From the NCBI GenBank assembly GCA_017651265.1, contig JAGCDO010000001.1, positions 4,442 to 68,441 on the forward strand: a stretch of DNA of 64,000 bases, in the 5' to 3' direction. The notes under the pieces are model-generated. The model was not told where the DNA came from and made no database searches. It saw nothing but the letters and a program-made list of their open reading frames with translations. The translations under genes and the position numbers were made by a program. How positions within the stretch are numbered: the first letter of the stretch is position 1; every line of letters starts with the position of its first letter. Source of the stretch: Prevotella sp. Its GTDB lineage: Bacteria > Bacteroidota > Bacteroidia > Bacteroidales > Bacteroidaceae. Shown here one piece after another: positions 4,091 to 63,900 of the stretch.

Positions 4091-4206
4091 GTCCCGCAGA
4101 AATGGCGGAAATAGCAGAAAGGGGCTACGCCCCATGCCATGCGGATAGTATACAGGTTATCCAACAAGATAAAAAATTTCTGCTATTTCCGCCATTTCTG
4201 CGGGAC
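4091..4206. mobile_element. MITE-like element (116 bp) with perfect 30-bp terminal inverted repeats
   Basis: GTCCCGCAGAAATGGCGGAAATAGCAGAAA at 4091-4120 is the exact reverse complement of 4177-4206. There is no coding capacity. Related copies lie at 40249-40523 and 43026-43171, and solo arms at about 36642-36671 and 5668-5692. Confidence 0.7.
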
Positions 4207-4267: not shown

Positions 4268-5578
4268 CTATGAAATGATGTTTTCTTTGATCTTTGCGAC
4301 GATATAAGCGACATCCTCATCGGTGACATACGGTCCCGCCGGCAGGCACATACCCACCTTGAAGATGGATTCGCTCACCCCGTTGACATACGCCACGCAG
4401 TCGCGATAAACAGGTTGACAGTGCATAGGCTTCCATACCGGACGTGCTTCGATGCCCGCTTGGTCGAGCGCCACACGCATCGCCTCCACGTTGTCGTTCG
4501 GCTGACAGTCGGTTACTGCTGTACTGGCTGCATGTATCACACCAGCAGCACCGCCCACAGCACCAGTAACGATGGTCTTATACGCATTCTCTTGTCCCTT
4601 CACCTTCACATCCGGATCCAAAGTAATCGTGCACAACCAATAATTACTATCAAATAACTTTGAACCTTGAACGCAGCTCTGCTGCTCTTGAACGGCCGTC
4701 AGGCCTTTTAAACTTTCATTAGGCTGCCCGTGCACCTTGATTCCAGGAACATCTGCCAGCAACGCTTCATAGAGCGCCTGCACATGCTTATGATGGTCGA
4801 TATGATCATTCACGACAGTCATCTGTCCCCGACCGATACCGGCACAGATATTACTCATGCGGTAGTTATAACCGATGGTCTCATGCTGATAGTAAGGATA
4901 CGACTCACGAGCCTGTGTGGCCAGCCACATCACCTTTCTCCAGCTTTCCTCATCAGGACAGATCAGGGCGCCACCACCCGAGGTGGTAATCATCTTGTTA
5001 CCGTTGAAGCTCAGTACGCCGTATTGTCCGAAGGTTCCCAGTATCTGACCGTTATAGCGTGAGCCGAAGCCCTCTGCTGCATCTTCTACGACAGGAATCT
5101 CATACTTATTGGCAATCTCCATGATACGGTCTATCCGATAAGGCATACCATAGAGGGCAACGGGAACAATGGCTTTGGGTTTCTTACCCGTCTTGGCGAT
5201 ACGGTCTTGAATGGCTGTTTCCAACAAATCGGGATCCATGTTCCACGTATCAGGTTCAGAATCAATAAACACGGGTTTGGCGCCAAGATAGGTTATTGGG
5301 TGTGAAGAGGCGCAGAACGTGAAACTCTGCACAATCACTTCATCTCCAGGGCCAACACCTGCGGCCAACAATCCGAGATGAACGGCAGCCGTTCCAGAAC
5401 TGAGGGCAACCACCCTCTTATCTTCTCCCACGAATTCCTCAAGGTCTTTTTCAAAACCATTTACGTTAGGTCCGAGTGGCACCACCCAATTGGTATCGAA
5501 AGCCTCCTTGATGAAACGTTGTTCAGCACCGTCCTCACTCATGTGCGCCAAGCACAGGTAAATTCTTTTGTCAGCCAT
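4268..5578 (-). CDS. DegT/DnrJ/EryC1/StrS-family PLP-dependent NDP-sugar aminotransferase
   Basis: 436 aa. The motif LSFNGNKMITTSGGGAL carries the PLP lysine. It has the N-terminal IYLCLAHMS..FIKEAFDTNWV and the C-terminal ARPVWKPMH pattern of sugar aminotransferases. It carries an extra in-frame repeat-derived segment (see 4656-4717). Confidence 0.9.
   Translation of the reverse strand: MADKRIYLCLAHMSEDGAEQRFIKEAFDTNWVVPLGPNVNGFEKDLEEFVGEDKRVVALSSGTAAVHLGLLAAGVGPGDEVIVQSFTFCASSHPITYLGAKPVFIDSEPDTWNMDPDLLETAIQDRIAKTGKKPKAIVPVALYGMPYRIDRIMEIANKYEIPVVEDAAEGFGSRYNGQILGTFGQYGVLSFNGNKMITTSGGGALICPDEESWRKVMWLATQARESYPYYQHETIGYNYRMSNICAGIGRGQMTVVNDHIDHHKHVQALYEALLADVPGIKVHGQPNESLKGLTAVQEQQSCVQGSKLFDSNYWLCTITLDPDVKVKGQENAYKTIVTGAVGGAAGVIHAASTAVTDCQPNDNVEAMRVALDQAGIEARPVWKPMHCQPVYRDCVAYVNGVSESIFKVGMCLPAGPYVTDEDVAYIVAKIKENIIS
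4656..4717 (-). repeat. In-frame composite repeat insert inside the aminotransferase CDS (CAAAGTT-type words flanking a GC-rich core)
   Basis: The sense strand reads GAAAGTTTAAAAG-gcctgacggccgttcaagagcagcagagctgc-GTTCAAGGTTCAAAGTT and encodes ESLKGLTAVQEQQSCVQGSKL. The architecture matches the insert at 38110-38176. Confidence 0.6.
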
Positions 5579-5646: not shown

Positions 5647-5764
5647 CATTTCCCCATTTTTTTCTTTCATTTCACGCAGAAATACAGAAATGCTATTAGT
5701 AATTGAACAAAATACCCAAACATCTAACCCAATGTGCTTGAAATGCCCTGCTGCAAAGAATTTG

Positions 5765-5827
5765 ATAAGGGTTAGATGATGGCTAAACATATCCCGTACA
5801 TATCCCGTAGATTTCCCGTAGATTTCC
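5765..5827. repeat. Left arm of a long inverted repeat (GGGTTAGATG block plus three 11-bp CCCGTAGATTT-type words)
   Basis: Bases 5799-5827 (CATATCCCGTAGATTTCCCGTAGATTTCC) match the reverse complement of 6288-6316 at 27/29. The flanking GGGTTAGATG pairs with CATCTAACCC at 6327-6336. Confidence 0.8.
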
Positions 5828-5840
5828 AACAATAACATTT

Positions 5841-5983
5841 CCTTGGTCCCTTGGCCATTTACATTAAAGATTGAACAATAAATCTTTGGTCCCTTGGTTC
5901 TTTGGTCTAAATAAATATTGGTCCCTTGGTTCTTTGGTCTAAAAAAAACTTTGTTCTTTTGTTCTTTGGTCTTACCTTGGTTC
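5841..5983. repeat. Array of TTGGTC/CTTTGGTC words (about 8-bp period)
   Basis: Read directly: ccttggtcccttggcc...ctttggtcccttggttctttggtctaaataaatattggtcccttggttctttggtct...ttgttcttttgttctttggtcttaccttggttc. A related block (cctttgaccgtcgtccttgttctttgatctaaataaaa) recurs at 6396-6440 in direct orientation. Confidence 0.7.
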
Positions 5984-6014: not shown

Positions 6015-6078
6015 AATCACCCCCTCATAGGGCGCAAAAATCTGTTAACAAACCACTGCCTTTCTGTTAAAAAACACT

Positions 6079-6152
6079 GAACGCCGTAGACGCTCCCAGT
6101 GAACGCCGCAAACGCTATCAGCGTTTGACGTTCCCGCTATTGGCGTTTGAGG
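6079..6152. repeat. Nested palindrome (GAACGCCGCAAACGCT-atc-AGCGTTTGACGTTC) with duplicated half-sites
   Basis: L1 is gaacgccgtagacgct (6079-6094). L2 is gaacgccgcaaacgct (6101-6116). R2 is agcgtttgacgttc (6120-6133). R1 is ggcgtttgagg (6142-6152). Confidence 0.7.
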
Positions 6153-6281
6153 CACTTTTCACCAGAAACTGCCATAGTTTCCAACGCAAACTGCCATAGT
6201 TTTCTTCATTTCATTTTCTCGTAACATCGTAACATCGTTATTTCGTAATTACGGGATTACGTTAGAACGACGACTCTGACT

Positions 6282-6340
6282 CTTACGGGAGATCTACGGG
6301 AAATCTACGGGAGATGTTTGAGCAACATCTAACCCTCCTC
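6282..6340. repeat. Right arm of the long inverted repeat (three 11-bp CTACGGGAnAT words plus CATCTAACCC)
   Basis: cttacgggagatctacgggaaatctacgggagatg...catctaaccctcctc is the reverse-complement partner of 5765-5827. The arms are separated by 454 bp. Confidence 0.8.
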
Positions 6341-6450
6341 AAACCCTTTACACATCGATGTTTCGCGAATTTTACGGGAAATGTTAGGTAAAATACCTTC
6401 GTCCTTTGACCGTCGTCCTTGTTCTTTGATCTAAATAAAACATCGGTTCT

Positions 6451-6510: not shown

Positions 6511-7362
6511 TTGTATATGAATGATTTGAAGATAAGTGTAATCATGTCGATCTATAAGAGTGATGTACCCGAATATGTGCGCATCGCTCTGGATAGTTTA
6601 CTTAACCAGACACGACTGCCGGATGAGATCGTGATTGTGGCCGACGGTCCTGTTCCTGCGAAGCTGGAACAGGAAGTTCAAAGTTCAAAGTTCTAAGTTC
6701 AAAGTTTAAAGTTACCCGTGGAGGTGACATACCTGCCGCAGGAGAAGAACGGGGGGCTGGGCGAGGCAATGAGGATTGCCGTGGAGGCAGCGAAGTATCC
6801 GTACCTGGCGCGCATGGACTCGGATGACATCTGTCTGCCCGACCGTTTCGAGAAGCAGATGAAGTGCTTCGAGGAGGATCCTGAACTGAGCATCGTGGGT
6901 GGTATGATCACGGAGTTCGATGGGGAACCGGAGAACATCATTGCAGAGCGTATCCTGCCGTTGGATGATGCAGGCATCAAGAAGATGATGCGAGGACGAT
7001 GTGCCGTGAACCATGTTACGGTAATCTTCAAGAAGGAGGATCTGCTCAGGAGCGGGAACTACCAACCGTTCTGGAAGCAGGAGGACCACTACCTATGGGC
7101 ACGAATGGTGGAGCATGGGTGTAAGTTCCGTAACATCCCTGACATTGTGGTGAACGTGCGGTCGGGTAAGGACCAGCTGGCGCGACGAGGCGGATGGCGA
7201 TTCTATAAGAGCGTGGTGCGCGTATTCTGGTACATGTATAAACATAAGCTGATTTCCTTCGGCTATTTCTTGTATATCTGCGCGGTGCGCGGCATCGTGC
7301 AGCTACTCATGCCGAACTGGCTGAGGACGTGGGTGTACATGAAGTTCCTGAGAAAGAGCTGA
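6511..7362 (+). pseudogene. Family-2 glycosyltransferase interrupted by an in-frame TAA inside a heptamer array
   Basis: ORFs 6511-6696 and 6718-7362 are in the same frame. The N part shows ISVIMSIYKSD..LDSLLNQT. The C part shows NGGLGEAMRIAVE..YLARMDSDDI (GT-A DxD). The only break is the TAA at 6694-6696. The probable true start is the ATG at 6517. Confidence 0.7.
6674..6715 (+). repeat. Six tandem heptamers (AAGTTCA family, 42 nt) inside the GT2 gene
   Basis: aagttca aagttca aagttcT aagttca aagttta aagttac. The variant third unit creates ttc-TAA. A consensus unit would read KFKVQSS with no stop. Confidence 0.85.
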
Positions 7363-37598: not shown

Positions 37599-38378
37599 TT
37601 ATGTTGTGGGACCGGTGTAGGTTTGTTTGACGGCCTCGTAGCTCTCGAGGGTGCCGATGTCGTAACGGTGACCGGGCATCTCGTAGGTATAGACGGTGGT
37701 CTGGGTGGAGAGCCAGGCGATGAAGCTGCCGGGGGCGTCGACGCCACAGCCGCTGTCGATGCCTTTCTTGATGAGTCGGGCGTCTTGACGGGTGTAGTAG
37801 TAGAAGGCAGGGATGCACCAGTGGCTCTTGGGGTTGGCGGGTTTCTCCTCCATGGAGAGGATACGTCCGTCGGCATCGATCTCGGCGACACCGGTCTTGT
37901 GCAACCGTGCCTCGTCGTGCTCGTAGTAGCGCATCACACAGGTGACGTTCTTCTCTTTGGCAAAACGGATGAAGTGACCCAAGCTGAAGTCGAGGAGGTT
38001 GTCGCCGGCCATGACGAGGAGGTCATCGTCTAAGTGGAGCTGGTCGATGGCGAACTGGATGTCCTTCACGGCGCCGAGACGAGATTCATTGGACGACGTT
38101 CCGTCGTCCAAAACTTTGAACTTTGCGCTCGGCTCTGCCGCTTTGCTCTGCAAAGAACTTTGAACTTTGAACTTTAATTCGGCCCACTGTGCAAAGATGG
38201 GGGCGAACTTGTGGTTGCTGATGATGATGTATTCATCGATGAGTCCGGTTTGGGACATGTCGTCGATGAGCCAGTCGAGGATGGGCTTGCCTGCTACTTC
38301 CAGCAGGGGCTTGGGGAAGTTCTGGGTTAGGGGGTATAGGCGGGTTGCATATCCCGCTGCTAATATAACACATTTCAT
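37599..38378 (-). CDS. NDP-sugar pyrophosphorylase (sugar-1-phosphate nucleotidyltransferase)
   Basis: 259 aa. MKCVILAAGYATRLYPLTQNFPKPLL (G-x-G-x-R loop) and VMAGDNL. It carries an in-frame repeat insert (ELKFKVQSSLQSKAAEPSAKFKVL). Confidence 0.8.
   Translation of the reverse strand: MKCVILAAGYATRLYPLTQNFPKPLLEVAGKPILDWLIDDMSQTGLIDEYIIISNHKFAPIFAQWAELKFKVQSSLQSKAAEPSAKFKVLDDGTSSNESRLGAVKDIQFAIDQLHLDDDLLVMAGDNLLDFSLGHFIRFAKEKNVTCVMRYYEHDEARLHKTGVAEIDADGRILSMEEKPANPKSHWCIPAFYYYTRQDARLIKKGIDSGCGVDAPGSFIAWLSTQTTVYTYEMPGHRYDIGTLESYEAVKQTYTGPTT
38110..38176 (-). repeat. In-frame composite repeat insert inside the nucleotidyltransferase CDS
   Basis: The sense strand reads AAAGTTCAAAGTTCAAAGTTC-tttgcagagcaaagcggcagagccgagcgc-AAAGTTCAAAGTTTT. 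Confidence 0.7.
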
Positions 38379-38430: not shown

Positions 38431-38635
38431 CGCACACAGATCTTAACCATCTTCACAGATATGGAGTATATACATTGGTAACTAAAACCTGTGAGATCTG
38501 TGAGATCTATGGGATCTATGAGGGTAAAGAGTGACTTTTCATTCGCACACAGATCTTAACCATCTTCACAGATATGGGGTATACACATGGTAACTATGAA
38601 TCTGTGGGATCTGTGAGATCTGTGTGAGGTTAAAA
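38431..38635. mobile_element. Two tandem ~95-bp MITE-like units with CACACAGATCT / AGATCTGTG arms
   Basis: Units at 38431-38527 and 38543-38635 share cgCACACAGATCTTAACCATCTTCACAGATATGGrGTATAyACAT.GGTAACTA...CTGTGrGATCTGTGAGATCT. GTGTGAGGTTAAA recurs three times (38621-38678), and the last copy supplies the kinase stop codon. Confidence 0.6.
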
Positions 38636-39871: not shown

Positions 39872-39895
39872 AACCTCACACAGATCTCACAGATC
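39872..39895. repeat. 24-bp perfect inverted-repeat partner of 38608-38631
   Basis: AACCTCACACAGATCTCACAGATC is the exact reverse complement of GATCTGTGAGATCTGTGTGAGGTT at 38608-38631. Confidence 0.85.
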
Positions 39896-40016
39896 TCACA
39901 GATTATTAAAATGTCCCGCTGAAATAACAGAAAGGACAGAAAGGATTTATCTTTAGAAAGAAATTTGTATAATTAAAATAATTATACCACAAATGATTAT
40001 TTTGGCTTTACAGCCG

Positions 40017-40248: not shown

Positions 40249-40523
40249 TCCCGCAGAAATAGCAGAAATCGCAGAAAGACCATGCGGTATGAAGCATTTT
40301 TCAGATTTATAGATGTTACTTGAAGTTTATTGAAAATGTATTTTCATAAGACTTCATGAAACCTCTATTTGTATATTCTATGAATATAGCCAACCACTCC
40401 GTGGTTACAATCTGAAAAAATATCTGCCATTTCTGCGATCTGACTATCGTCTTCCTCCTCCTCGCTCGACAAAGCTTATACAAGTATCACTTTGTTCTCG
40501 CTCGTTCGTCGGTTCTGCGGGAC
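40249..40523. mobile_element. MITE of the CCCGCAGAAAT family, enlarged by internal insertions
   Basis: The left arm is TCCCGCAGAAATAGCAGAAATCGCAGAAAG (40249-40278). The right arm is split into CTGCCATTTCTGCGAT (to 40439) and TTCTGCGGGAC (40513-40523) by about 73 bp. The interior is homologous to the 43026-43171 copy plus an extra ~60 bp. Confidence 0.6.
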
Positions 40524-41849: not shown

Positions 41850-41854
41850 CTTTT

Positions 41855-41882
41855 AACTATGAACTATGAACTATGAACTTTA
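41855..41882 (-). repeat. Heptamer array (sense CATAGTT x3) filling the fmt-ugd intercistronic spacer
   Basis: Plus strand reads aactatg aactatg aactatg aacttta. It runs from the fmt stop (41880-41882) to 5 nt before the ugd ATG (41849). Confidence 0.8.
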
Positions 41883-43025: not shown

Positions 43026-43171
43026 GTCCCGCAGAAATGGCAGAAATCGCAGAAATTTGCCATGCGGGATGAAGCTTTTTCAGATTTATATATGATACTT
43101 GAATATAGCTAACCACTATGTAGTTACAACTTGAAACAAAATTTCTGCGATTTCTGCTATTTCTGCGGGAG
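43026..43171. mobile_element. MITE of the CCCGCAGAAAT family (146 bp)
   Basis: TCCCGCAGAAATGGCAGAAATCGCAGAAA (43027-43055) matches the reverse complement of TTTCTGCGATTTCTGCTATTTCTGCGGGA (43142-43170) at 28/29. Confidence 0.7.
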
Positions 43172-45731: not shown

Positions 45732-46372
45732 TTCCTGATAATCGTAACCACTCCCTCACGGGTGAGTTTGATGATGCTCGACGGCGTGTGGGGATTATGC
45801 TCCTGTCGGCGTGACATACAGACATAATCCACCGCATCGAGGAGCTGCTGACTGATGTCGCAGTAGTTTTGGGCGGGTGGTTCGCCACTGATGTTCGCAC
45901 TGGTGCTGACCAGTGGTTTCTGGAAGCGGTAGCAGAGCTGCTGCGAGAACGGTTCGCGGGTGATGCGCATGGCTATACTGCCATCTTCAGCGATCAGGTT
46001 CGGTGCCAGGTTCACGGCTCCGTCGAGGATCACCGTGGTGGGCTTGGTAGCCAGTTCCATGATATCCCATGCCACCTCGGGGACATTACGCACATAGCGC
46101 TGCAGACGGACATCACTGTCAACCAGACAGATCATCGCCTTTGAATCATCACGCTGCTTGATCTCATACACCCGTGATACGGCAGCGGCATTGGTCGCGT
46201 CACAACCAATGCCCCAAACGGTATCGGTGGGGTAAAGAATCACCCCACCCTCTCGCAGCACCTTTACCGCTGCCTCTATATCCTTAGAATAGTCCAATTG
46301 TTTTTTACTTTGAACTTGGAACTTTGAACTTTGAACTTTAACTTCGTTAACTGTCAACTTTATAGCTCCCAA
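45728..46372 (-). CDS. tsaC: L-threonylcarbamoyladenylate synthase (TsaC/YrdC/Sua5 family)
   Basis: GGVILYPTDTVWGIGCDATN and STSANISGEP. Only a TTG start is available. The N-terminal ~25 aa (..VKVQSSKFQVQSKK..) are encoded by a heptamer array, so the start is uncertain. Confidence 0.8.
   Translation of the reverse strand: MGAIKLTVNEVKVQSSKFQVQSKKQLDYSKDIEAAVKVLREGGVILYPTDTVWGIGCDATNAAAVSRVYEIKQRDDSKAMICLVDSDVRLQRYVRNVPEVAWDIMELATKPTTVILDGAVNLAPNLIAEDGSIAMRITREPFSQQLCYRFQKPLVSTSANISGEPPAQNYCDISQQLLDAVDYVCMSRRQEHNPHTPSSIIKLTREGVVTIIRK
46307..46346 (-). repeat. Heptamer array (sense CAAAGTT family) inside the 5' end of tsaC
   Basis: Plus strand reads actttga acttgga actttga actttga actttaa cttcg. 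Confidence 0.8.
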
Positions 46373-47448: not shown

Positions 47449-48126
47449 ATGCTACCATTTGACTTTCATATTGACATCGTAAACCTGATATTCAAGGGAA
47501 TACTGATTGGAATCATCGCCAGTGCGCCGATGGGACCAGTGGGTATTTTGTGTATCCAGCGCACGCTGAACAAAGGAAGGTGGTACGGCTTCGTGACAGG
47601 CATCGGTGCTGCCGTCAGCGACATTTTCTATGCCTTGATTACCGGTTTCGGTATGTCATTCGTGATGAACATGGTGAACAACTCCCGATACCAATTCCTG
47701 TTGCAGATACTTGGTAGTATCCTGCTGTTGGCCTTCGGTATCTACTGCTACCGCAGTAATCCGATGAAGAACATGCATGTGAGCGGGAAGCAGAAGGGTA
47801 CGCTGATACACAACGGCGTGACAGCCTTCTTCGTCACCTTCTCCAATCCTCTGATCATCTTCCTGTTTATCGCCTTGTATGCCCAGTTCTCGTTCGTGGT
47901 GCCCAACCATCCCGTGGAGATGTGCCTGGGTTATCTGAGTATTCCGTTTGGGGCTCTGCTGTGGTGGTATGGTCTGACGTGGCTGGTGGATAAGATCCGA
48001 GGCATCTTCGATACCAGCGGCATTCTTATAATAAATAAGGTAATCGGTTCGGTAGTGATCATCTTCTCCCTCATCGTGCTCTTCGGAACGGTGTTTAACT
48101 TGTATAAGTTGCCGAACTATTATTAA
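47449..48126 (+). CDS. LysE-family amino-acid exporter
   Basis: 225 aa with 6 TM segments. GILIGIIASAPMGPVGILCIQRTL. A -7 box TACCTTTG lies at 47433-47440. Confidence 0.75.
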   Translation: MLPFDFHIDIVNLIFKGILIGIIASAPMGPVGILCIQRTLNKGRWYGFVTGIGAAVSDIFYALITGFGMSFVMNMVNNSRYQFLLQILGSILLLAFGIYCYRSNPMKNMHVSGKQKGTLIHNGVTAFFVTFSNPLIIFLFIALYAQFSFVVPNHPVEMCLGYLSIPFGALLWWYGLTWLVDKIRGIFDTSGILIINKVIGSVVIIFSLIVLFGTVFNLYKLPNYY

Positions 48127-48130
48127 GGAA

Positions 48131-48169
48131 AGCCCCTCCCCGACCCTCCCCGAAGGGAAGGGGGAATCG
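48131..48169. repeat. GC-rich palindromic (REP-like) unit
   Basis: agCCCCTCCCCgaCCCTCCCCgaaGGGAAGGGGGaatcg, immediately after the LysE stop. Confidence 0.7.
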
Positions 48170-48196
48170 AAGGTGCGGTGGAGTGAAGAATGATTT

Positions 48197-48227
48197 GTGG
48201 AATGTGGAGTGTGGAGTGTGGAGTGAG
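48197..48227. repeat. GTGGAGT heptamer array
   Basis: gtggaat gtggagt gtggagt gtggagt gag. The same word family occurs inside the GH3 CDS at 52725-52759. Confidence 0.8.
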
Positions 48228-48443
48228 ATTACCACTGAGATTATGACATTACGCGCCAGTCACTTGGGCGTGAGCCGACAAAGAATACAAGCCGCCCCTT
48301 TGATGGGGCGAGCTTACCTTAATGAACGAGCGACGAGAAGGAGCGGTTAAGCCTTCCCATATAGGGGAAGGTTTGGTTAGGGTGGATGTTTCTTTTGCCT
48401 CTTTTCTTTGCGCCAAAGAAAAAGAGGAAGTAAAAAAGAAGTT

Positions 48444-49028
48444 ATGTTCGTATCAAGAGAATTAAGAAAGAAGAATATTGCGGAGTACCTGCTGTATATG
48501 TGGCAGGTGGAAGATCTGTTGCGGGCTTACGACTGCTCGTTGGGGAGGATCCGACGGGAGTATATCGACCGGTTTGACTATACCGATGAACAGAAGGAGG
48601 AGATGGCCGACTGGTATGGCGACCTGATCAGGATGATGAACCAAGAGGGCTGTCGGCTGACCGGTCATCTGCAGATCAACAAAATCGTGATGCAGCAACT
48701 GGAGGAGCTGAATGCCGAACTGCTCGACGGTACGGATCATCCGTTCTATACAAGCGAATACTATAAGGTGCTGCCGTATATCGTGGAACTCCGTAGACGA
48801 GGAAAGAGGAGCCTCACCCCCATACCCCCTCCCCAAGAGGAAGGGGGAAACCGAGGAGAAACGAAGGAGGAATCGGAGATCGAGACGTGCTTCAACGCCC
48901 TCTATGGCATGATGATGCTGCGACTGCAGAAGAAAGAGGTGAGTCCTGATACACAGCATGCCATTAAGGAGATTACCACCTTTATCGGGATGCTGAATGA
49001 CGAGTTTATGAAAGTTCATAGTTCATAG
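48444..49028 (+). CDS. DUF4924-like conserved hypothetical protein
   Basis: MFVSRELRKKNIAEYLLYMWQVEDLLRAYDCSL.. resembles the Bacteroidota DUF4924 family (from memory). The ATG at 48444 is preferred over the listed TTG at 48408. It carries an in-frame REP-like insert. Confidence 0.65.
   Translation: MFVSRELRKKNIAEYLLYMWQVEDLLRAYDCSLGRIRREYIDRFDYTDEQKEEMADWYGDLIRMMNQEGCRLTGHLQINKIVMQQLEELNAELLDGTDHPFYTSEYYKVLPYIVELRRRGKRSLTPIPPPQEEGGNRGETKEESEIETCFNALYGMMMLRLQKKEVSPDTQHAIKEITTFIGMLNDEFMKVHSS
48810..48856 (+). repeat. REP-like GC-rich palindrome inserted in-frame in the DUF4924-like CDS
   Basis: AGCCTCACCCCCATACCCCCTCCCCaagagGAAGGGGGAaaccgagg, encoding SLTPIPPPQEEGGNRG. Confidence 0.7.
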
Positions 49029-49056
49029 TGCATAGTGCATAGTTCAAAGTTCAAAG
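49024..49056 (+). repeat. Heptamer array (CATAGTG/CATAGTT/CAAAGTT) filling the DUF4924-rfbD spacer
   Basis: catagtg catagtg catagtt caaagtt caaag. It contains the upstream TAG stop (49026-49028) and ends at the rfbD ATG (49057). Confidence 0.85.
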
Positions 49057-51660: not shown

Positions 51661-51693
51661 AAGAAGCAAGAAGCAAGAGGCAAGAGGCAAGAG
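51661..51693 (+). repeat. Heptamer array (AAGAAGC/AAGAGGC) filling the prfC-upxY spacer
   Basis: aagaagc aagaagc aagaggc aagaggc aagag. It starts 2 nt after the prfC stop and ends at the ATG at 51694. Confidence 0.85.
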
Positions 51694-52271: not shown

Positions 52272-54722
52272 TTATTCCACCCTGCTCTCTGAGAAATAAT
52301 ATTCGCGCAACGGTTTACTAACCGCCTTTCCCGTCAAGGTTACTATCTCCTGCAGACGGATATCCGTTGATGATGCCCCTACCTTAATGATATAGGTACC
52401 GGGGAGGATATTCCATTGGCGCTGCTGTTCATGACTATAGAAGCCCAGTTGCTCGGTATAGAGCTTCACCTTCACCGTCTTGGTCTGCCCTGGTTCCAAC
52501 GCTACTCTGGCAAAGCCCTGCAGTTGGATGGGACGGATAGACTGGTCGGCTGTTGAAGGCGACAGATATACCTGCGTAATCTCGTCGGCCTTCATCTTTC
52601 CTGTATTCGTCACTTCGAACGAAAGGTTCACCTCCTTGGCGGTTGTCTTCACCTCTTTATCCACCTTCAGATTCTTATATTCGAATGTTGTATAGCTCAA
52701 TCCGTAGCCAAACGGCCACTGAATGAGTGAGGAGTTTGGAGTGTGGAGTGTGGAGTGAGAAACAAGAGATGAAGGATTGTTATAACAGATGGGGGTATTG
52801 ATCTCGGTATTCGGATAGCTCACAGAGAGCTTGGCCGACGGAGATACCTTACCAAAGAGGATATCAGCCACGGCATTACCACCCTCCTCACCAGGATACC
52901 AGGCTTGGATGACTGCCGCACATTTCTCGGCAATACCAGAAATAACCTGTGCCCTACCGCCGAATACCACCAACACCACAGGCTTACCTGTTGCCAGCAA
53001 CTCGTTGACATACTGTTCCTGCTTACCCGGCAGACGGAGTCCTTGGCGGTCGCGGTTCTCTCCGCAGAGCATCACGTTCTCGCCCACCGCAGCAATGATT
53101 ACATCTGCCTGTTGGGCCAATCGGAGAGCCTCAGCCTTATCGGCTTTCTCGCCTGAATTGACCTTACGGTGCAGGATATCATAGTCCCAGGCACGCTCAT
53201 CACCGCCTTTGTTGAAGATGGTTTCGATCTCTTCGGTCCAGTCGCAGCCGCGGGAGTATGAGAGGATGGGGTTGGTGGGATCACTAGGCTTGATGGGCGA
53301 AGTGGAGTTTAGATAGTTGTTCATTCCTTCGAGGAGCGTGACGACATGCGGCTGGTCCATCTTGTCGACATCCTCCAACATCTTCCAGAAATACGACATG
53401 GCAGGATAACTGTAGTCGCCGCACATGGCCCACATGGAGTTGGCGTTGGGTCCTGTAAGGAAGATTCTCAAAGTTGACAGTTGAGAGTTGACAGTTGACA
53501 ATTGAGAGTTGAGAGGAGAGAGAGGCAGAATACCGTTGTTCTCAAGCAATACGATGGATTGCGTGGCGATATCGTAAGCCGTCTGGCGCTCCTCGGGAGT
53601 ATCGAGTTGGATTTGTTCTGTGGTATACAGATAGGGATCCTTATCGAACAGACCAGCACGGAACTTATACTTGAGCACGTTCTTCACAGCACGTTCCAAT
53701 GTCTCAGGCTTCACCAGTCCTTTATCAATGGCCTCCTGCAGATACTTGTAGTTGGCACCATGCGGGAAATCAACATCGCAGCCCCCATTGATGGCAGCTG
53801 CCGCCTTCTCTACCGGACTCTGCAAACCAGGAATCTGGTCGATAGCGGTATAGTCGCTCACCACCATTCCGTCGAAGCCGAGATAGTCGCGAAGGATATC
53901 TTTGAGAATCTTACCGTTGGTCACACAGTTCACGGTGTCGCCCTTTTCATCAAGCATGGCATGATAGCCAGGCATCACGGCCTTACTATCTGTAAGACGG
54001 ATCATGGTTTCGTGGGGCATCAGGATCTCTTCCATGAGTTCCTTCTCCTTGGCATCACCTCCGCCACCATAACCCAGGTAATGTTTGGAGCAGGTACCTA
54101 CCCCTTTCTTGAGGTCGCCTTGCTGCAAGCCTTTGACAAACGCTGTGCCCATGGCAGCAGACAGGTAGCCATCCTCACCGTACGATTCCTCCAATCGGTT
54201 AAAGCTCGGTGTGCGACACACATCGACCATCGGCGAAAGCGACAACACACCACCCATCTTACGCATGGCAATACCCGTTTGAAGGGTCTTCAGTTCCGCC
54301 AGTTCGGTATTGAACGAACAAGCCTGTCCGATCTGCTGGGGATAGATGGTAGCACCCAAGGTGTTCACACCCGACAGCACCTCTTCGTGGAACAAGGCCG
54401 GAATACCATTGGGCGTATGATTCATCAGCCAGTCCTGGACGGCAGCCACACGGTCGCGCAGCACATTGGGATCCATAGGTTTCTGACTGGCAAACTGTGA
54501 GAAGTGTCCGATGCCGTTTGGAATCAGCTGTCGGCACTTCGTGGTGTCAAGCTTTCCCTGCTCATCGAAGAGGTCGTCCATATACATACTTCTCAACTGG
54601 GCAATTCGCTCCTCCTGCGACATCCTGTCGTAGAGCTTGTCAACCTGATTATCTATTTCCGAGGTTTTAGTAGTACAACCTACCAATAGTGCAATGGCAC
54701 ATATAACCGTTAGTCTTTTCAT
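52272..54722 (-). CDS. Glycoside hydrolase family 3 beta-glucosidase/xylosidase-type lipoprotein
   Basis: 816 aa. Lipoprotein signal MKRLTVICAIALLVGC. GFDGMVVSDY (nucleophile Asp region), KHYLGYGG, and the C-terminal FGYGLSYTTFEY. It carries two in-frame heptamer-derived inserts. Confidence 0.9.
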   Translation of the reverse strand: MKRLTVICAIALLVGCTTKTSEIDNQVDKLYDRMSQEERIAQLRSMYMDDLFDEQGKLDTTKCRQLIPNGIGHFSQFASQKPMDPNVLRDRVAAVQDWLMNHTPNGIPALFHEEVLSGVNTLGATIYPQQIGQACSFNTELAELKTLQTGIAMRKMGGVLSLSPMVDVCRTPSFNRLEESYGEDGYLSAAMGTAFVKGLQQGDLKKGVGTCSKHYLGYGGGGDAKEKELMEEILMPHETMIRLTDSKAVMPGYHAMLDEKGDTVNCVTNGKILKDILRDYLGFDGMVVSDYTAIDQIPGLQSPVEKAAAAINGGCDVDFPHGANYKYLQEAIDKGLVKPETLERAVKNVLKYKFRAGLFDKDPYLYTTEQIQLDTPEERQTAYDIATQSIVLLENNGILPLSPLNSQLSTVNSQLSTLRIFLTGPNANSMWAMCGDYSYPAMSYFWKMLEDVDKMDQPHVVTLLEGMNNYLNSTSPIKPSDPTNPILSYSRGCDWTEEIETIFNKGGDERAWDYDILHRKVNSGEKADKAEALRLAQQADVIIAAVGENVMLCGENRDRQGLRLPGKQEQYVNELLATGKPVVLVVFGGRAQVISGIAEKCAAVIQAWYPGEEGGNAVADILFGKVSPSAKLSVSYPNTEINTPICYNNPSSLVSHSTLHTPNSSLIQWPFGYGLSYTTFEYKNLKVDKEVKTTAKEVNLSFEVTNTGKMKADEITQVYLSPSTADQSIRPIQLQGFARVALEPGQTKTVKVKLYTEQLGFYSHEQQRQWNILPGTYIIKVGASSTDIRLQEIVTLTGKAVSKPLREYYFSESRVE
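52725..52759. repeat. GAGTGTG/GAGTGAG heptamer run inside the GH3 CDS
   Basis: gagtgag gagtttg gagtgtg gagtgtg gagtgag, encoding ..SLVSHSTLHTPNSS.. just before the conserved WPFGYGLSYT. Confidence 0.75.
53472..53513. repeat. Six tandem heptamers (AGTTGAC/AGTTGAG, 42 nt) inside the GH3 CDS
   Basis: agttgac agttgag agttgac agttgac aattgag agttgag, encoding LNSQLSTVNSQLST between ..NNGILPL and ..RIFLTGPNA. Confidence 0.8.
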
Positions 54723-58324: not shown

Positions 58325-58490
58325 ATTCAGCATTATTAATAATCTCTCTGCAAATATAAAAAAAAAAGGATTACCTTCCCCCAAAAAAGAACTTTTTTTT
58401 TCTTTTCGGATCAAAGCACAGATGTAAACGGGAAGAAACAAAGCAGGAAGATTCTTCGTTAAGAAGATTTTCAAGCATTGAAACAGAATG

Positions 58491-58644
58491 TTCCCAACAT
58501 GGGAACAAAATATTCCCAACATGGGAACAAAGTATTCCCAACGTGGGAACAAAGTGTTTCTGACGTATAAACAAAGTGTTTGTAGCGTATAAACAAAGTG
58601 TTTGTAGCGTGTAAACAGAGTGTTCGTAGCCTAAAAACACTTTT
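58491..58644. repeat. Seven head-to-tail 22-bp units with internal dyad symmetry
   Basis: ttcccaacatgggaacaaaata / ttcccaacatgggaacaaagta / ttcccaacgtgggaacaaagtg / tttctgacgtataaacaaagtg / tttgtagcgtataaacaaagtg / tttgtagcgtgtaaacagagtg / ttcgtagcctaaaaacactttt. Confidence 0.85.
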
Positions 58645-60933: not shown

Positions 60934-63900
60934 TTACTTCCTTTCCGCAGGATTCTGCAACTGGAAGCCCTCCTGGAGATCAGGTTTCTGGAATGAGTAC
61001 TCAATACTCTCCACGATAATAGAATGAGGTACGATGTAACTAATCACCGTATTATAGTCGTAATGCGAATGATTGCTGATGAACTCTTCCTTGGAAGCTG
61101 CCGTCACATGCATGAGGGCACTACGGGAAGGATTCGGAATCTCACTAACTCTGACAATCTCCTCTTTGCCAGTATTCACATCTACGCGAACCAGATACTT
61201 CCAGCAATCCTTCGGTGCTTTAACAATATACGCATGATCAAGACCAGCCTTCTTAGCCTCCTTGAGGAAGATGCGCTTCATTGATGCCTGAGGAACGCAC
61301 TTGTCTATGCCCACATGAATGATACCTGGAGTACACTTTGATACTGGAGAACTGAACAGGAAACGCTCATTACCAGTAGATTCCATAGCACCGATAGCAG
61401 GATGACGCCCCGTGAGAAGAGTCTTCAGGATACCATTCTCGATGATTGGGAGCGACTTCTTAGGAACCACGCCGTCAACATCCACCTTATAGTTTGCCAA
61501 AAGTTTCTGTCCCTTGTACTCAGGAGTATCAGCCCACTGGGAAATACTCATCTTGGTATCAAGAATACGCTTGCCAAGCATCATACTGCTGACGGCACTG
61601 CCCTTTTGCATATCACGAGAGGCGATACAACTTGTCTGAACAACCTGATGCGAGATAGCCTCAACAACAGACTCATCCTCAATCATTATCGGACCTACAT
61701 AGAACTCCTTCACCACCGGAGCGTCTGCCTTCTTCATGAAAAGTTCACAGAACTCCCTAGTACGCTGCTTCAGCTCATCAAGCGAAGGCAACTCATCAAT
61801 ACGCCTTGCAAACACCTCAAACTGATCATGCAGGGTTGAACCGTCACAGGTCGTGATGTTTCCATTTATGTTAAGTTTTATCTCAGGACGCGCAAAACGA
61901 AGTTTCTGTCCTTCGGAAGTAAAGCGGTAGATATCCTTTGTATCCACATTAAAAAGCACATCAGAATCAAATATACGAGGATAATCAGCAAAGATAGCTG
62001 ACAACTCAGCTGCATACCTTATCATCAAAGCTGTATCAATAGGAGTCACGGCACTCTCCTCTATGTATTCACTTGCAGGAAGCTCAAGCATCTCTGGAAT
62101 CTGGAGATCCTCCTCTGGCAGAGGATTCACCTTTCGCATACTGGCCTTAGCTCCCATGTTATTGAGAGCCATCTTGTAACTGCGGTCACTGATAATCCAG
62201 AATCCACGGCGTATCATATCATAGTCAGTCTCGTTTGGAATGCCGAAATTCATTTCATTATTATTCACATCCATCATACTTGTCGTCATCTTGTCGCCAA
62301 GTGACAAATTGACAAAGCCACGATTCTGACTCTTACCATAATTAATGCGGTACACACCACCAAGTGAAGCCGACACATAGGCAATGTTACCATGAATAAA
62401 CCTGTAGTCAACGAAGTAAGGAAGAGGGAGATTGGCTAAGTGCAGACTATCCTTCGTGCGCTTCATCTCATCCTCCATTGCCTTGAAGATAATCTCACCC
62501 GTATCCTTACCAGCATCCCTACCGTATGTCTTGGTATATTCAGGAAGCTTCAGGGCTGGTGCTACCATCTTCTGATTATTGCTACGCTGTGTCTCTACCT
62601 TGGAAACATATATATAAGGTGAGGTGGCAGATATTGGAACCCAGCCAGACTCCGCGCCACAGGAACCTGTAAACGTAGATGGAGTATCACCAGCAGCCGT
62701 GATGTTAGAGAACATTGCCAAAGGTGTACCAATAAGATTAACTCCACGCACAAGTTCGTCCTTACGACCGTCCACATAAATCCTGAACACCTCCACAGGA
62801 GTCACGTTGAAGGCATTGACATTATCAAGAAAAGTAAAACCGCTCGTCACCGTGCGGAAGAAATAGCCATACTCCTTACCTTGCTTTTTTGCCTCCTTGA
62901 TAAGCATCTCGCGAAGCTGAGCCTCGGTATATGGCTGGTTGGTCTCAACAACCAGATTAGATTGTCGTGACACAGGATCATTGCCACCAGCAGCCCTTCC
63001 ATGGCCATTGCTGACTGGGAACCCGTCAATCGGAATGCGACACGTAAGGAAATCCTTCAGCACGCCATTCTCAACATTCTGCACTCGGCGAGCCTTAACT
63101 CCCTCGTCATCATATTTATACGAGCCATTGAGAGCCTGCTTGCCGTAGTAATTCTGCGTAGGGTCACAATACACGCTGAAAGAAGCAGGCAGAACCCTCT
63201 CGCCTACCATGTGCTTAAAGGTCTCACCACCCTTCTTCATGCGATGACTCTCAAGACGATGACCGAAGATCTCATGGAAGAACACACCACTTGCAGAACC
63301 TGAAAGAATAGCAGGACCGGCATAAGGATCGGCAAGAGGAGCATCACGAAGCGCAAGCAGACGATTCACGATATCATGCGCCTTAGCTACAAGCACCTCC
63401 TCGGAAGGAAGTTCAGCCTCACTGAAACCAAAGAAATCCTCATACAGAGGGCATTGCATACCATCGGTAGCAAGAACCATGGCTTGCAGCATAATACGGA
63501 CACAACGGCGGTTCTGCACCACCGATGTGCCATCCGAGTTTACAATATACGTCCTGATTGTCCCAAATTCAATATTTGCAGAACCATCTTCGAGCATACG
63601 GCACTCCTTGAACACGCTGCTCACCTTGTTGAGTTTGTTCTTCCACGCTAAGGTATCTACCATCCATGGCGAGAGAGCAGCCTCATAGTATGACTCAACA
63701 GGAGCATCTGAGAAGCATGGTGACTTATCCTCGAACTGTGCATCCGTCCTTGACTTCGCCACAGCCTCCTCATAGCGTTTCACAGCCGTGCGGTATCTAT
63801 TCATAGAAGCGTACCATATCTCATCACGATACTGGCGCAACGGCCCTCCAGATATAGCCACGCCATTACCTTGAGCACCTCTGTTATTCGCTTGCTCTAT

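Follow-up and report, generated by a model that had tools for sequence, protein, structure and literature searches.

The window analysed here, a 64,000-nt stretch of Prevotella sp. (GenBank assembly GCA_017651265.1, contig JAGCDO010000001.1), contains a gene for a GT2-family glycosyltransferase, hereafter GT2, that is interrupted by a stop codon within a tandem array of six heptamers. The initial annotation had read this array as a possible slipped-strand contingency switch, in which a gain or loss of units would turn the gene ON or OFF. Comparison with other alleles does not support this: the intact and interrupted forms differ by A or T at position 6694 and not in the number of units, and 67 other alleles are all in frame. 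Most probably, the window carries a private loss-of-function allele, or an assembly or consensus error, in a translated repeat, and not a programmed slipped-strand ON/OFF switch.

The frame of GT2 starts with an ATG at 6517 and ends with the stop codon at 7360–7362. The TAA at 6694–6696 is the sole in-frame stop among the 281 codons, and sequence and translation agree with the earlier description of an otherwise continuous frame. The units of the array begin at 6674 (AAGTTCA), 6681 (AAGTTCA), 6688 (AAGTTCT), 6695 (AAGTTCA), 6702 (AAGTTTA), and 6709 (AAGTTAC). Tandem Repeats Finder assigns to the array a period of 7, 5.7 copies, 90% matches, and a score of 66. The sequence confirms that the stop is made by the variant unit AAGTTCT in a 42-nt in-frame array. 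However, this is not the single variant unit, as had been stated: three of the six units differ from AAGTTCA, and only the third yields a stop. In the normal allele, the array consists of four AAGTTCA units followed by AAGTTTA and AAGTTAC, and encodes EVQSSKFKVQSLKL. Four of the six units are thus perfect. The array lies inside a reading frame, and its unit length is not a multiple of three. Six-frame translation bears out the claim that the word, whichever of the three sense frames is read, encodes a cyclic peptide of the KFKVQSS type, and that each antisense frame contains TGA. The location of the array was also given correctly: the variable segment that separates the N-terminal nucleotide-binding region from the DxD motif.

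The T at 6694 is private to the window, and all other alleles have A, which gives the codon AAA for Lys-60. The 11 other aligned loci share this A and have the same series of six units. Three independent assemblies among the fetched loci, which are referred to by L numbers, match the window over 17,362 nt (L019), 12,914 nt (L023), and 7,975 nt (L027), and position 6694 is the sole mismatch in each. Twenty-three NCBI and ENA contigs carry the exact 281-residue protein with Lys-60. A collection of 15 billion proteins contains none of the four possible split products of GT2, among them those of 59, 61, and 214 residues. Loci L019–L028 were fetched by exact protein identity, which guarantees the length of their arrays, and were therefore not used as evidence on length. 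Among loci fetched by protein identity, alleles with 16 silent differences encode the identical GT2 protein. Retrieval through the neighboring GT4 gene, which is unbiased for GT2, returned eight contigs. All five that reach GT2 carry the intact 281-residue gene, and the other three end earlier.

The wider comparison covered 67 alleles with both linker anchors, including those from species-representative genomes and, by protein-guided retrieval, from JGI metagenomes. The segment between the anchors DG[PS] and N.GLG was compared with frames allowed to differ. None of the 67 non-window alleles, 57 of which were retrieved by similarity, is frameshifted or stopped. The linker between the anchors varies from 78 to 279 nt, and every length is a multiple of three. 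Within the species cluster, the array is 42 nt long in every allele, without a length variant. The JGI metagenome contigs were also scanned with the exact flanks for length variants; there were no matches, because the strain is not represented there. Every other GT2 allele examined is full length, and the idea of a decaying glycosyltransferase, also put forward in the initial annotation, can apply to this one genome only. Judged by the refuting conditions named in the initial annotation, its idea is not refuted, since full-length alleles exist and orthologs have an array at this site.

Orthologs of GT2 with 55–98% identity have a 96-nt linker between the anchors, the same as in the window, and a 42-nt period-7 pattern at the same place. 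The unit words differ: AAGGTTA and AAGTTCA in L013, AAGTGTA in L004, AAATTGA in L002, and AAGTTCA in the species cluster of the window. The persistence of a period-7 array at this position in orthologs shows that it is more than a one-off insertion. More distant orthologs have linkers of 78–90 nt without an array. Others contain further in-frame inserts exactly at the array site, which extend the linker to 138–279 nt (L005, L045, L052, L053, L059, L066-70, L079/L083, L081, L087, L091, and L096). Judged from these sequences, the GT2 array appears to be old, translated, and length-constrained, with a sequence that turns over while its length stays in frame.

Public sequencing runs are in line with a substitution at the array. 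No indexed run contains more than 96% of the words of the locus, which fits one single-nucleotide polymorphism (SNP). Logan contigs from four runs are each one letter off the window within approximately positions 6689–6698. These 31-mer contigs break inside the array, and the differing letter was taken from longer assemblies instead. The window contains the unit pair AAGTTCT-AAGTTCA (AAGTTCTAAGTTCA) a single time, and all 343 fetched loci lack it. A search of the runs for the T allele with a 60-nt query, from which three words were sampled, gave a weak result: it matched a single non-specific array word in soil, peat, and water. P0124 (214 residues, starting with VEVTYLPQ) was considered as a second split allele and rejected as an artefact, since its contig breaks off inside the array and the gene starts 45 nt from that end. 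P0122 and P0123, whose contigs measure 1.4 and 0.9 kb, are probably truncated as well.

The read-through product of GT2 matches Pfam families PF00535 (80.1 bits, cut-off 23.3) and PF13641 (35.4 bits, cut-off 27). Its DxD motif, DSDD at residues 101–104, is invariant in 29 homologs. The best PDB match is chondroitin synthase K4CP (2z86/2z87, E 4e-10). The product reaches no named NCBIfam equivalog (EpsE, TuaG, and others); the best score, to an EpsE-like model, is 75 bits against a cut-off of 450. The GT2 gene is alone on the + strand amid a polysaccharide-biosynthesis cluster on the − strand. Its neighbors in the cluster encode a CapD-like dehydratase, a DegT-type aminotransferase, several GT4 enzymes, an acyltransferase, hexapeptide transferases, and EpsG. 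The relatives are all metagenome-assembled genomes of rumen or gut Prevotellaceae, and the best species-representative genome is 86% identical. The locus was found in public runs from bovine and other gut metagenomes. Low-depth fragments of the gene were seen in rumen metatranscriptomes, for which DNA carry-over is a possible source.

The AlphaFold model of GT2, calculated from 29 homologs, has a mediocre mean pLDDT of 63 and a confident N-terminal half. In this half, strands and helices alternate to form a Rossmann-like β-α-β region before the DxD motif. The array residues make up the C-terminal two-thirds of a helix spanning residues 48–63 (helix 2) and the loop before the strand of residues 69–73, with pLDDT values of 82–93. 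According to the model, the stop at codon 60 falls halfway along helix 2 and severs the protein ahead of the DxD motif. The N-terminal remnant would contain strand 1, helix 1, strand 2, and half of helix 2, without the DxD motif. We propose that the tract is a translated heptanucleotide simple-sequence repeat (SSR) that forms the end of helix 2 and the next loop of the GT-A fold. Its length of six units, or 14 codons, would be held because any change that is not a multiple of three units breaks the frame. The change from A to T in unit 3 converts Lys-60 (AAA) to a stop and truncates the protein before the DxD motif.

The GT2 array is one of nine period-7 arrays of at least three units in the window, whereas each other period from 4 to 12 is represented by zero or one array. 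In 106 kb from other Prevotellaceae species, the only period-7 array is that in GT2 of L013. The period-7 arrays of the window are far beyond chance and belong to a lineage-wide population of heptamer arrays. The word AAGTTCA forms the arrays at 6674, 38155, and 46307, and part of that at 49013. Other words are TAGTTCA (41855 and 49013), CAGTTGA or GAGTTGA (53472), TGTGGAG (48196 and 52725), and AAGAGGC (51661). Approximately half of the arrays are translated in frame: in GT2, an NTP-transferase gene, twice in a GH3 β-glucosidase gene, more weakly in a GT4 gene, and in a degenerate form in the aminotransferase gene. The remaining arrays fill gaps between a stop codon and the next start, and end 0–9 nt ahead of that start. 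Such arrays are very abundant in rumen communities, since the depth of words over the GT2 array is approximately 70–1,600 times that of its flanks in four metagenomes. The intergenic arrays fold no better than shuffled sequences, which makes a structural-RNA role unlikely.

The word AAGTTCA was considered as specially conserved and rejected as such, since a control word, ACAAGTT (composition-matched and stop-free), repeated four times spreads over phyla likewise. Exact four-unit arrays of AAGTTCA and of ACAAGTT were each found in at least 120 stretches with a similar spread over many phyla, and the arrays reach up to 30 units; both counts are lower bounds and are not comparable. Of 85 AAGTTCA arrays in other phyla, 33 have the stop-free orientation and are located in long open frames (the AAGTTCA and ACAAGTT loci are L104-L183 and L224-L303).

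The sister arrays of the window, in contrast to that of GT2, vary in unit number. Their sites were compared in up to 14 related strains by means of unique flanking anchors, and with a near-identical twin contig (ENA ERZ27256962 k141_1570754). The array at 41855 is one unit shorter in the twin contig than in the window. At its edge, position 41854 is a T that is private to the window, against G in four other loci. The array at 49013 measures 51 nt in the window and 149 nt in the twin, a difference of 14 extra perfect AAGTTCA units between flanks that are 100% identical (L030/L040). This difference could be a real expansion or contraction, or the collapse of the assembly in one contig. In other strains, the site measures 36–129 nt and holds 36 or 43 nt of AAATTGA units, other words, or cores of the kind described below. 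The two adjacent AGTGCAT units at 49013 are the usual signature of unit duplication by slippage, and we infer such an event there. The stretch at 51661 is 41, 48, 55, or 69 nt long depending on the strain, corresponding to 5, 6, 7, or 9 units, and has GAGAGGT-type units in two strains. The site at 46307 is empty in several strains (19–20 nt), and elsewhere it is occupied by arrays with different words, or by an array accompanied by core 1 or core 2. Thus, the heptamer slippage invoked in the initial annotation is real in intergenic arrays of the same word, but it is not the event at the GT2 array.

The in-frame arrays of the GH3 gene (52272–54722, − strand) are present or absent among strains, and the length of the protein varies from 770 to 824 residues. 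The site at 53472 is empty (14 nt) in six strains, and others have a 47-nt array of the AAGTTCA type, or a 77-nt stretch that includes core 1. Each gain in length at the two GH3 sites (30, 33, 39, or 63 nt) is divisible by three. The same GH3 site can be occupied by differing unit words, even in the opposite word orientation. We hypothesize that the heptamer arrays of this lineage arise and turn over by slippage and by exchange between arrays, and that those in coding DNA survive only in the stop-free orientation and at in-frame lengths.

Four of the eight independent differences between the window and the twin contig are in heptamer arrays or at their edges, and the arrays make up approximately 0.5% of the sequence. 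The arrays are therefore hot spots for changes in unit number and for base substitution. Slippage presumably generates the arrays, and the rate of point mutation within them is probably elevated. The change at 6694 is best seen as one mutational event of these hot-spot arrays. Nine SNPs relative to the twin are located within 150 nt of a LysE-family gene (47850–48000), in an otherwise identical 18-kb stretch; this cluster looks like a short recombination tract.

Some of the arrays carry GC-rich cores. Core 1, CGCTCGGCTCTGCCGCTTTGCTCTGCAAAG, is nearly always embedded between GAACTTT units. Its exact 22-mer was found in 30 stretches (L344-L373) from approximately 15 genomes of rumen Prevotellaceae and Bacteroidales, and nowhere else. 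With 35 occurrences and up to five or six loci per genome, core 1 is a dispersed multicopy repeat. In 13 of the 35 occurrences, it lies within a frame that is open for 150 nt on either side, on the stop-free strand. Core 1 folds no better than shuffled sequences (z −0.4). Core 2, of approximately 70 nt, forms a hairpin of −28.8 kcal/mol (z −2.4). In the NTP-transferase gene of the window, the 57 nt at 38112–38168, composed of array, core 1, and array, match an insert that other strains have in their aminotransferase gene (L020 8184-8240) with 100% identity. The aminotransferase gene of the window (4268–5578, − strand) has a hypervariable in-frame loop at 4650–4710 that encodes ESLKGLTAVQEQQSCVQGSKLF. 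The corresponding loop in L021 is a pure AAGTTCA array encoding ESSKFKVQSSQLF, and in L020/L022/L024 it is an array with copies of core 1, which makes the protein 11 residues longer than that of the window. Further copies of core 1 are in L036, where the GH3 loop contains it, and in L031, where it precedes the Sua5 gene. The GT2 orthologs L079 and L083 have an insert at the array site that, from a peptide reading and not a DNA alignment, appears to be core-1-like. As in GH3, the aminotransferase site is filled in some strains and empty in others.

A further, conserved GC-rich element, CCCCTCCCCGACCCTCCCCGAAGGGAAGGGGG (within 48127–48230), follows the LysE gene of the window, and in other strains it is flanked by two to four GAGGAAG units on the left and zero to four TGTGGAA units on the right. 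PSPSLKGRGE-like peptide motifs in the in-frame inserts of GT2 orthologs resemble this element, which suggests that it is translated there.

The most economical route for the transfer of cores would be copying between arrays by homologous recombination, and the alternative would be a true mobile element. We tentatively speculate that the GT2 tract is a docking site of an undescribed system of rumen Prevotellaceae and related Bacteroidales, in which arrays serve as homology pads and GC-rich cassettes are copied between them by recombination. The cassettes would land in frame in surface helices and loops (GT2, aminotransferase, NTP-transferase, and GH3) and at the stop-to-start junctions of operons. 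If such a system exists, it would give rise to strain-level length hypervariability of proteins and intergenic leaders, with a function comparable to that of Rickettsia palindromic elements but based on simple-sequence arrays.

Table 1 GT2, its remnants, and the heptamer arrays of the window
Feature	Position	Strand	Description
GT2-family (GT-A fold) glycosyltransferase gene	6517..7362	+	281 codons, broken at codon 60
Heptamer array, 6 units	6674..6715	+	Residues 53–66, EVQSSKF*VQSLKL
TAA stop, codon 60	6694..6696	+	Spans the junction of units 3 and 4, with one base from unit 3 and two from unit 4
N-terminal remnant open reading frame	6517..6696	+	59 residues from ATG 6517; 61 residues from TTG 6511 (mechanical list of open reading frames)
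C-terminal remnant open reading frame	6718..7362	+	214 residues from GTG 6718; has DxD motif and C-terminal half
Array, core 1, and AAGTTCA x3, in frame in NTP-transferase gene	38112..38175	-	Peptide ELKFKVQSSLQSKAAEPSAKFKVL
Intergenic array, sense TAGTTCA, 3.6 units	41855..41879	-	Fills gap from formyltransferase stop to UDP-glucose dehydrogenase start
Intergenic array, sense AAGTTCA	46307..46344	-	From ROK-kinase stop to Sua5/YrdC TTG start, 9 nt upstream of start
Intergenic TGTGGAG array	48196..48225	+	Beside conserved GC-rich element 48134-48170
Intergenic array, AGTTCAT/AGTGCAT/AGTTCAA units	49013..49056	+	Abuts ATG of RmlD-like reductase gene
Intergenic array, AAGAAGC/AAGAGGC	51661..51693	+	Fills gap from RF3 stop to ATG of NusG-like gene
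Second in-frame GH3 array, + strand word GGAGTGT	52725..52757	-	41 nt against 11 nt in empty site; difference 30 nt
In-frame array in GH3 β-glucosidase loop, sense GTCAACT/CTCAACT	53472..53515	-	Peptide SPLNSQLSTVNSQLSTL

The evidence is divided between a real null allele and an artefact as the source of the T at 6694, and either is possible; we lean slightly towards a real allele. There is a sizeable minority chance that the T is a consensus, polishing, or assembly error and that the gene is really intact. Hundreds of near-identical AAGTTCA arrays occur in the same community, and the excess depth of array words over flanking words makes mis-recruited reads plausible. The T is the only difference in 17 kb from an independent assembly, no indexed public run has T-bearing words (part of this search sampled three words), and the 14 units by which the array at 49013 is shorter than in the twin contig possibly reflect an assembly collapse. 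On the other hand, the window is a distinct strain or assembly, with bona fide differences from the twin at 46126, at 61657–61663, and in the patch of nine SNPs. The pair AAGTTCT-AAGTTCA, moreover, is in no other array of the 343 loci, so there is no obvious donor for mis-recruited reads. This uncertainty about the T is one of several points that weigh against a private null allele or error in a translated repeat. The expectation that neither GT2 fragment is a functional enzyme has the predicted fold as its basis. Consensus assemblies and 31-mer contigs are blind to minority length variants, and the 28-nt perfect run of the array is unresolvable with 31-letter words. Near-identical strains differ by whole units in intergenic arrays of the same word, which indicates that slippage is active in the organism, and the four perfect units of the normal GT2 allele suffice for rare slippage.

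The last two points would also favor a contingency locus that toggles GT2 by gain and loss of units, with the stop allele as one of its states, as would a unit of seven nucleotides that is not a multiple of three, the position of GT2 within a surface-polysaccharide cluster, and the maintenance of an array at this site across species. We nevertheless consider such a switch very improbable. No out-of-frame array was met in the 67 alleles, and the length is always 42 nt within the species cluster. The only known OFF allele arose by substitution, and the array peptide is a confidently modelled helix. The retention of 42 nt by orthologs while the word changes points to a constraint on length and not to the use of length changes. 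It is likewise unlikely, though less so, that the array is kept for a role at the level of nucleic acid, as a landing pad for array-flanked mini-cassettes or as a site on RNA or DNA for a repeat-binding protein, with coding being secondary. This would account for the array-flanked cores common to unrelated loci, such as the 57 nt shared by the NTP-transferase and aminotransferase genes, for the 35 copies of core 1 between GAACTTT units, 13 of them in open frames, and for the inserts that GT2 orthologs bear precisely at the array site. It would also fit the four intergenic arrays that end 0–9 nt before a start codon, as reported for TAACTGA repeats (PMC4679880). However, the unit word varies among orthologs (AAGTTCA, AAGGTTA, AAGTGTA, and AAATTGA), which argues against a sequence-specific binding site, and none of 52 AAGTTCA arrays in other phyla is near a start codon. 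The GT2 array of the window is without a core, and no recombinase, transposase, or binding protein was identified. We therefore retain the view that the window holds a private null allele or an error in a translated repeat. The analysis thus chiefly corrects the initial interpretation: the presence of a non-triplet repeat in a gene for surface polysaccharide does not in itself make a phase-variation switch. This copy of GT2 should be annotated as a pseudogene or a possible assembly error, and the species has an intact enzyme.

The region upstream of GT2 contains repeats of other kinds. An inverted repeat of 69 nt with 81% complementarity (5752–5820 and 6284–6352, 463 nt apart) is positioned symmetrically between the divergent aminotransferase and GT2 genes, and is built of tandem 11-mers, TCCCGTAGATT and its complement. 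An invertible promoter upstream of GT2, of the kind that underlies phase variation in Bacteroidales, was considered and rejected, as no strand-changing joints were seen and no inversion was found in 10 strain loci or in the contigs of four runs. In the contigs of these four runs, one contig spans the left arm of the repeat in the orientation of the window. The inverted repeat may be a regulator-binding arrangement. A 32-nt tandem repeat (TTGGTCCCTTGGTTCTTTGGTCTAAATAAATA) is present in three copies at 5877–5972, in the 940-nt region upstream of GT2, with a related copy at 6410–6441. Tandem 22-nt repeats, such as CACTGAACGCCGTAGACGCTCC, are located at 6034–6220, and positions 6065–6200 have 10–25 times the local depth in metagenomes, which identifies them as a dispersed repeat. 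A separate array with a 22-nt period lies at 58480–58639. Pairs of short intergenic 9-nt tandem arrays in inverted orientation (CGCAGAAAT versus ATTTCTGCG; ATCTGTGAG versus CACAGATCT) are found at 43030–43056 and 43141–43167, 4096–4120 and 4176–4198, and 38492–38624 and 39879–39903, and a further 9-nt array site is 40253–40277. Positions 1–980 of the window are inverted in L021 (1099–2077), where a mechanosensitive-channel gene and its neighbor differ in order and orientation.

Surface-polysaccharide clusters are the typical setting of phase-variable glycosyltransferases. The tracts of the phase-variable, or contingency, lipopolysaccharide genes of Haemophilus influenzae are tetranucleotide repeats. 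The phase variation of lipopolysaccharide in this bacterium is described as mediated by SSRs (PMC2651432). GT2 resembles contingency loci in having a non-triplet tandem repeat within a surface-polysaccharide glycosyltransferase gene, where one unit more or less shifts the frame in principle. It differs in that the tract shows no length polymorphism, the OFF form is due to a substitution, only four units are perfect, and the encoded segment is a structured helix. A variable unit number, the defining feature of contingency loci, was looked for at the GT2 array in assembled alleles and was not found.

Rickettsia palindromic elements (RPEs) are selfish repeats inserted in frame in protein-coding genes. 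Cores 1 and 2 resemble them in their in-frame placement in unrelated enzyme genes, with presence or absence among strains (GH3, aminotransferase, and GT2 orthologs), and in occupying surface-type segments without ever introducing stops. The cores have no sequence relationship to RPEs, are shorter (approximately 30–70 nt), and lie within heptamer arrays. A clear hairpin is formed by core 2 only, and the GT2 array of the window has no core.

Heptameric repeats are over-represented in many bacterial genomes, and slippage related to the polymerase footprint has been proposed as their origin in a 2007 survey, as summarized in PMC4692102. Described families are the GGGAATC and GGGGA(T/C)T repeats of Xanthomonas and Nostoc (PMC4692102), the STRR heptamers of Calothrix, in the form in which PMC4692102 cites them, and the TAACTGA repeats of Beggiatoaceae, Cyanobacteria, and five Bacteroidetes (PMC4679880). 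Most of the latter precede start codons by a few nucleotides; they are translatable in one orientation, and no function is known for them (PMC4679880). The arrays of the window share with these families the large number of arrays per genome without enrichment of other periods, the variation in length and sequence among close relatives, the location of many arrays just ahead of start codons, the combination of one translatable and one stop-rich orientation, and the occasional arrays in open reading frames. The words of the window are not TAACTGA, GGGAATC, CCCCAGT, TTGGTCA, or CAACAGT, so the likeness is one of kind and not of sequence, and rumen Prevotellaceae are not among the hosts in PMC4679880 or PMC4692102. 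Arrays of this type break short-read assemblies and can seed consensus errors in metagenome-assembled genomes from the rumen. The heptamer-rich lineage of rumen Prevotellaceae is also a tractable system for asking why a period of seven is favored and whether arrays before start codons affect expression. The arrays of the window belong to the kind of over-represented bacterial heptameric SSRs, from whose described families they differ in that approximately half are translated in enzyme genes and some carry shared GC-rich cores.

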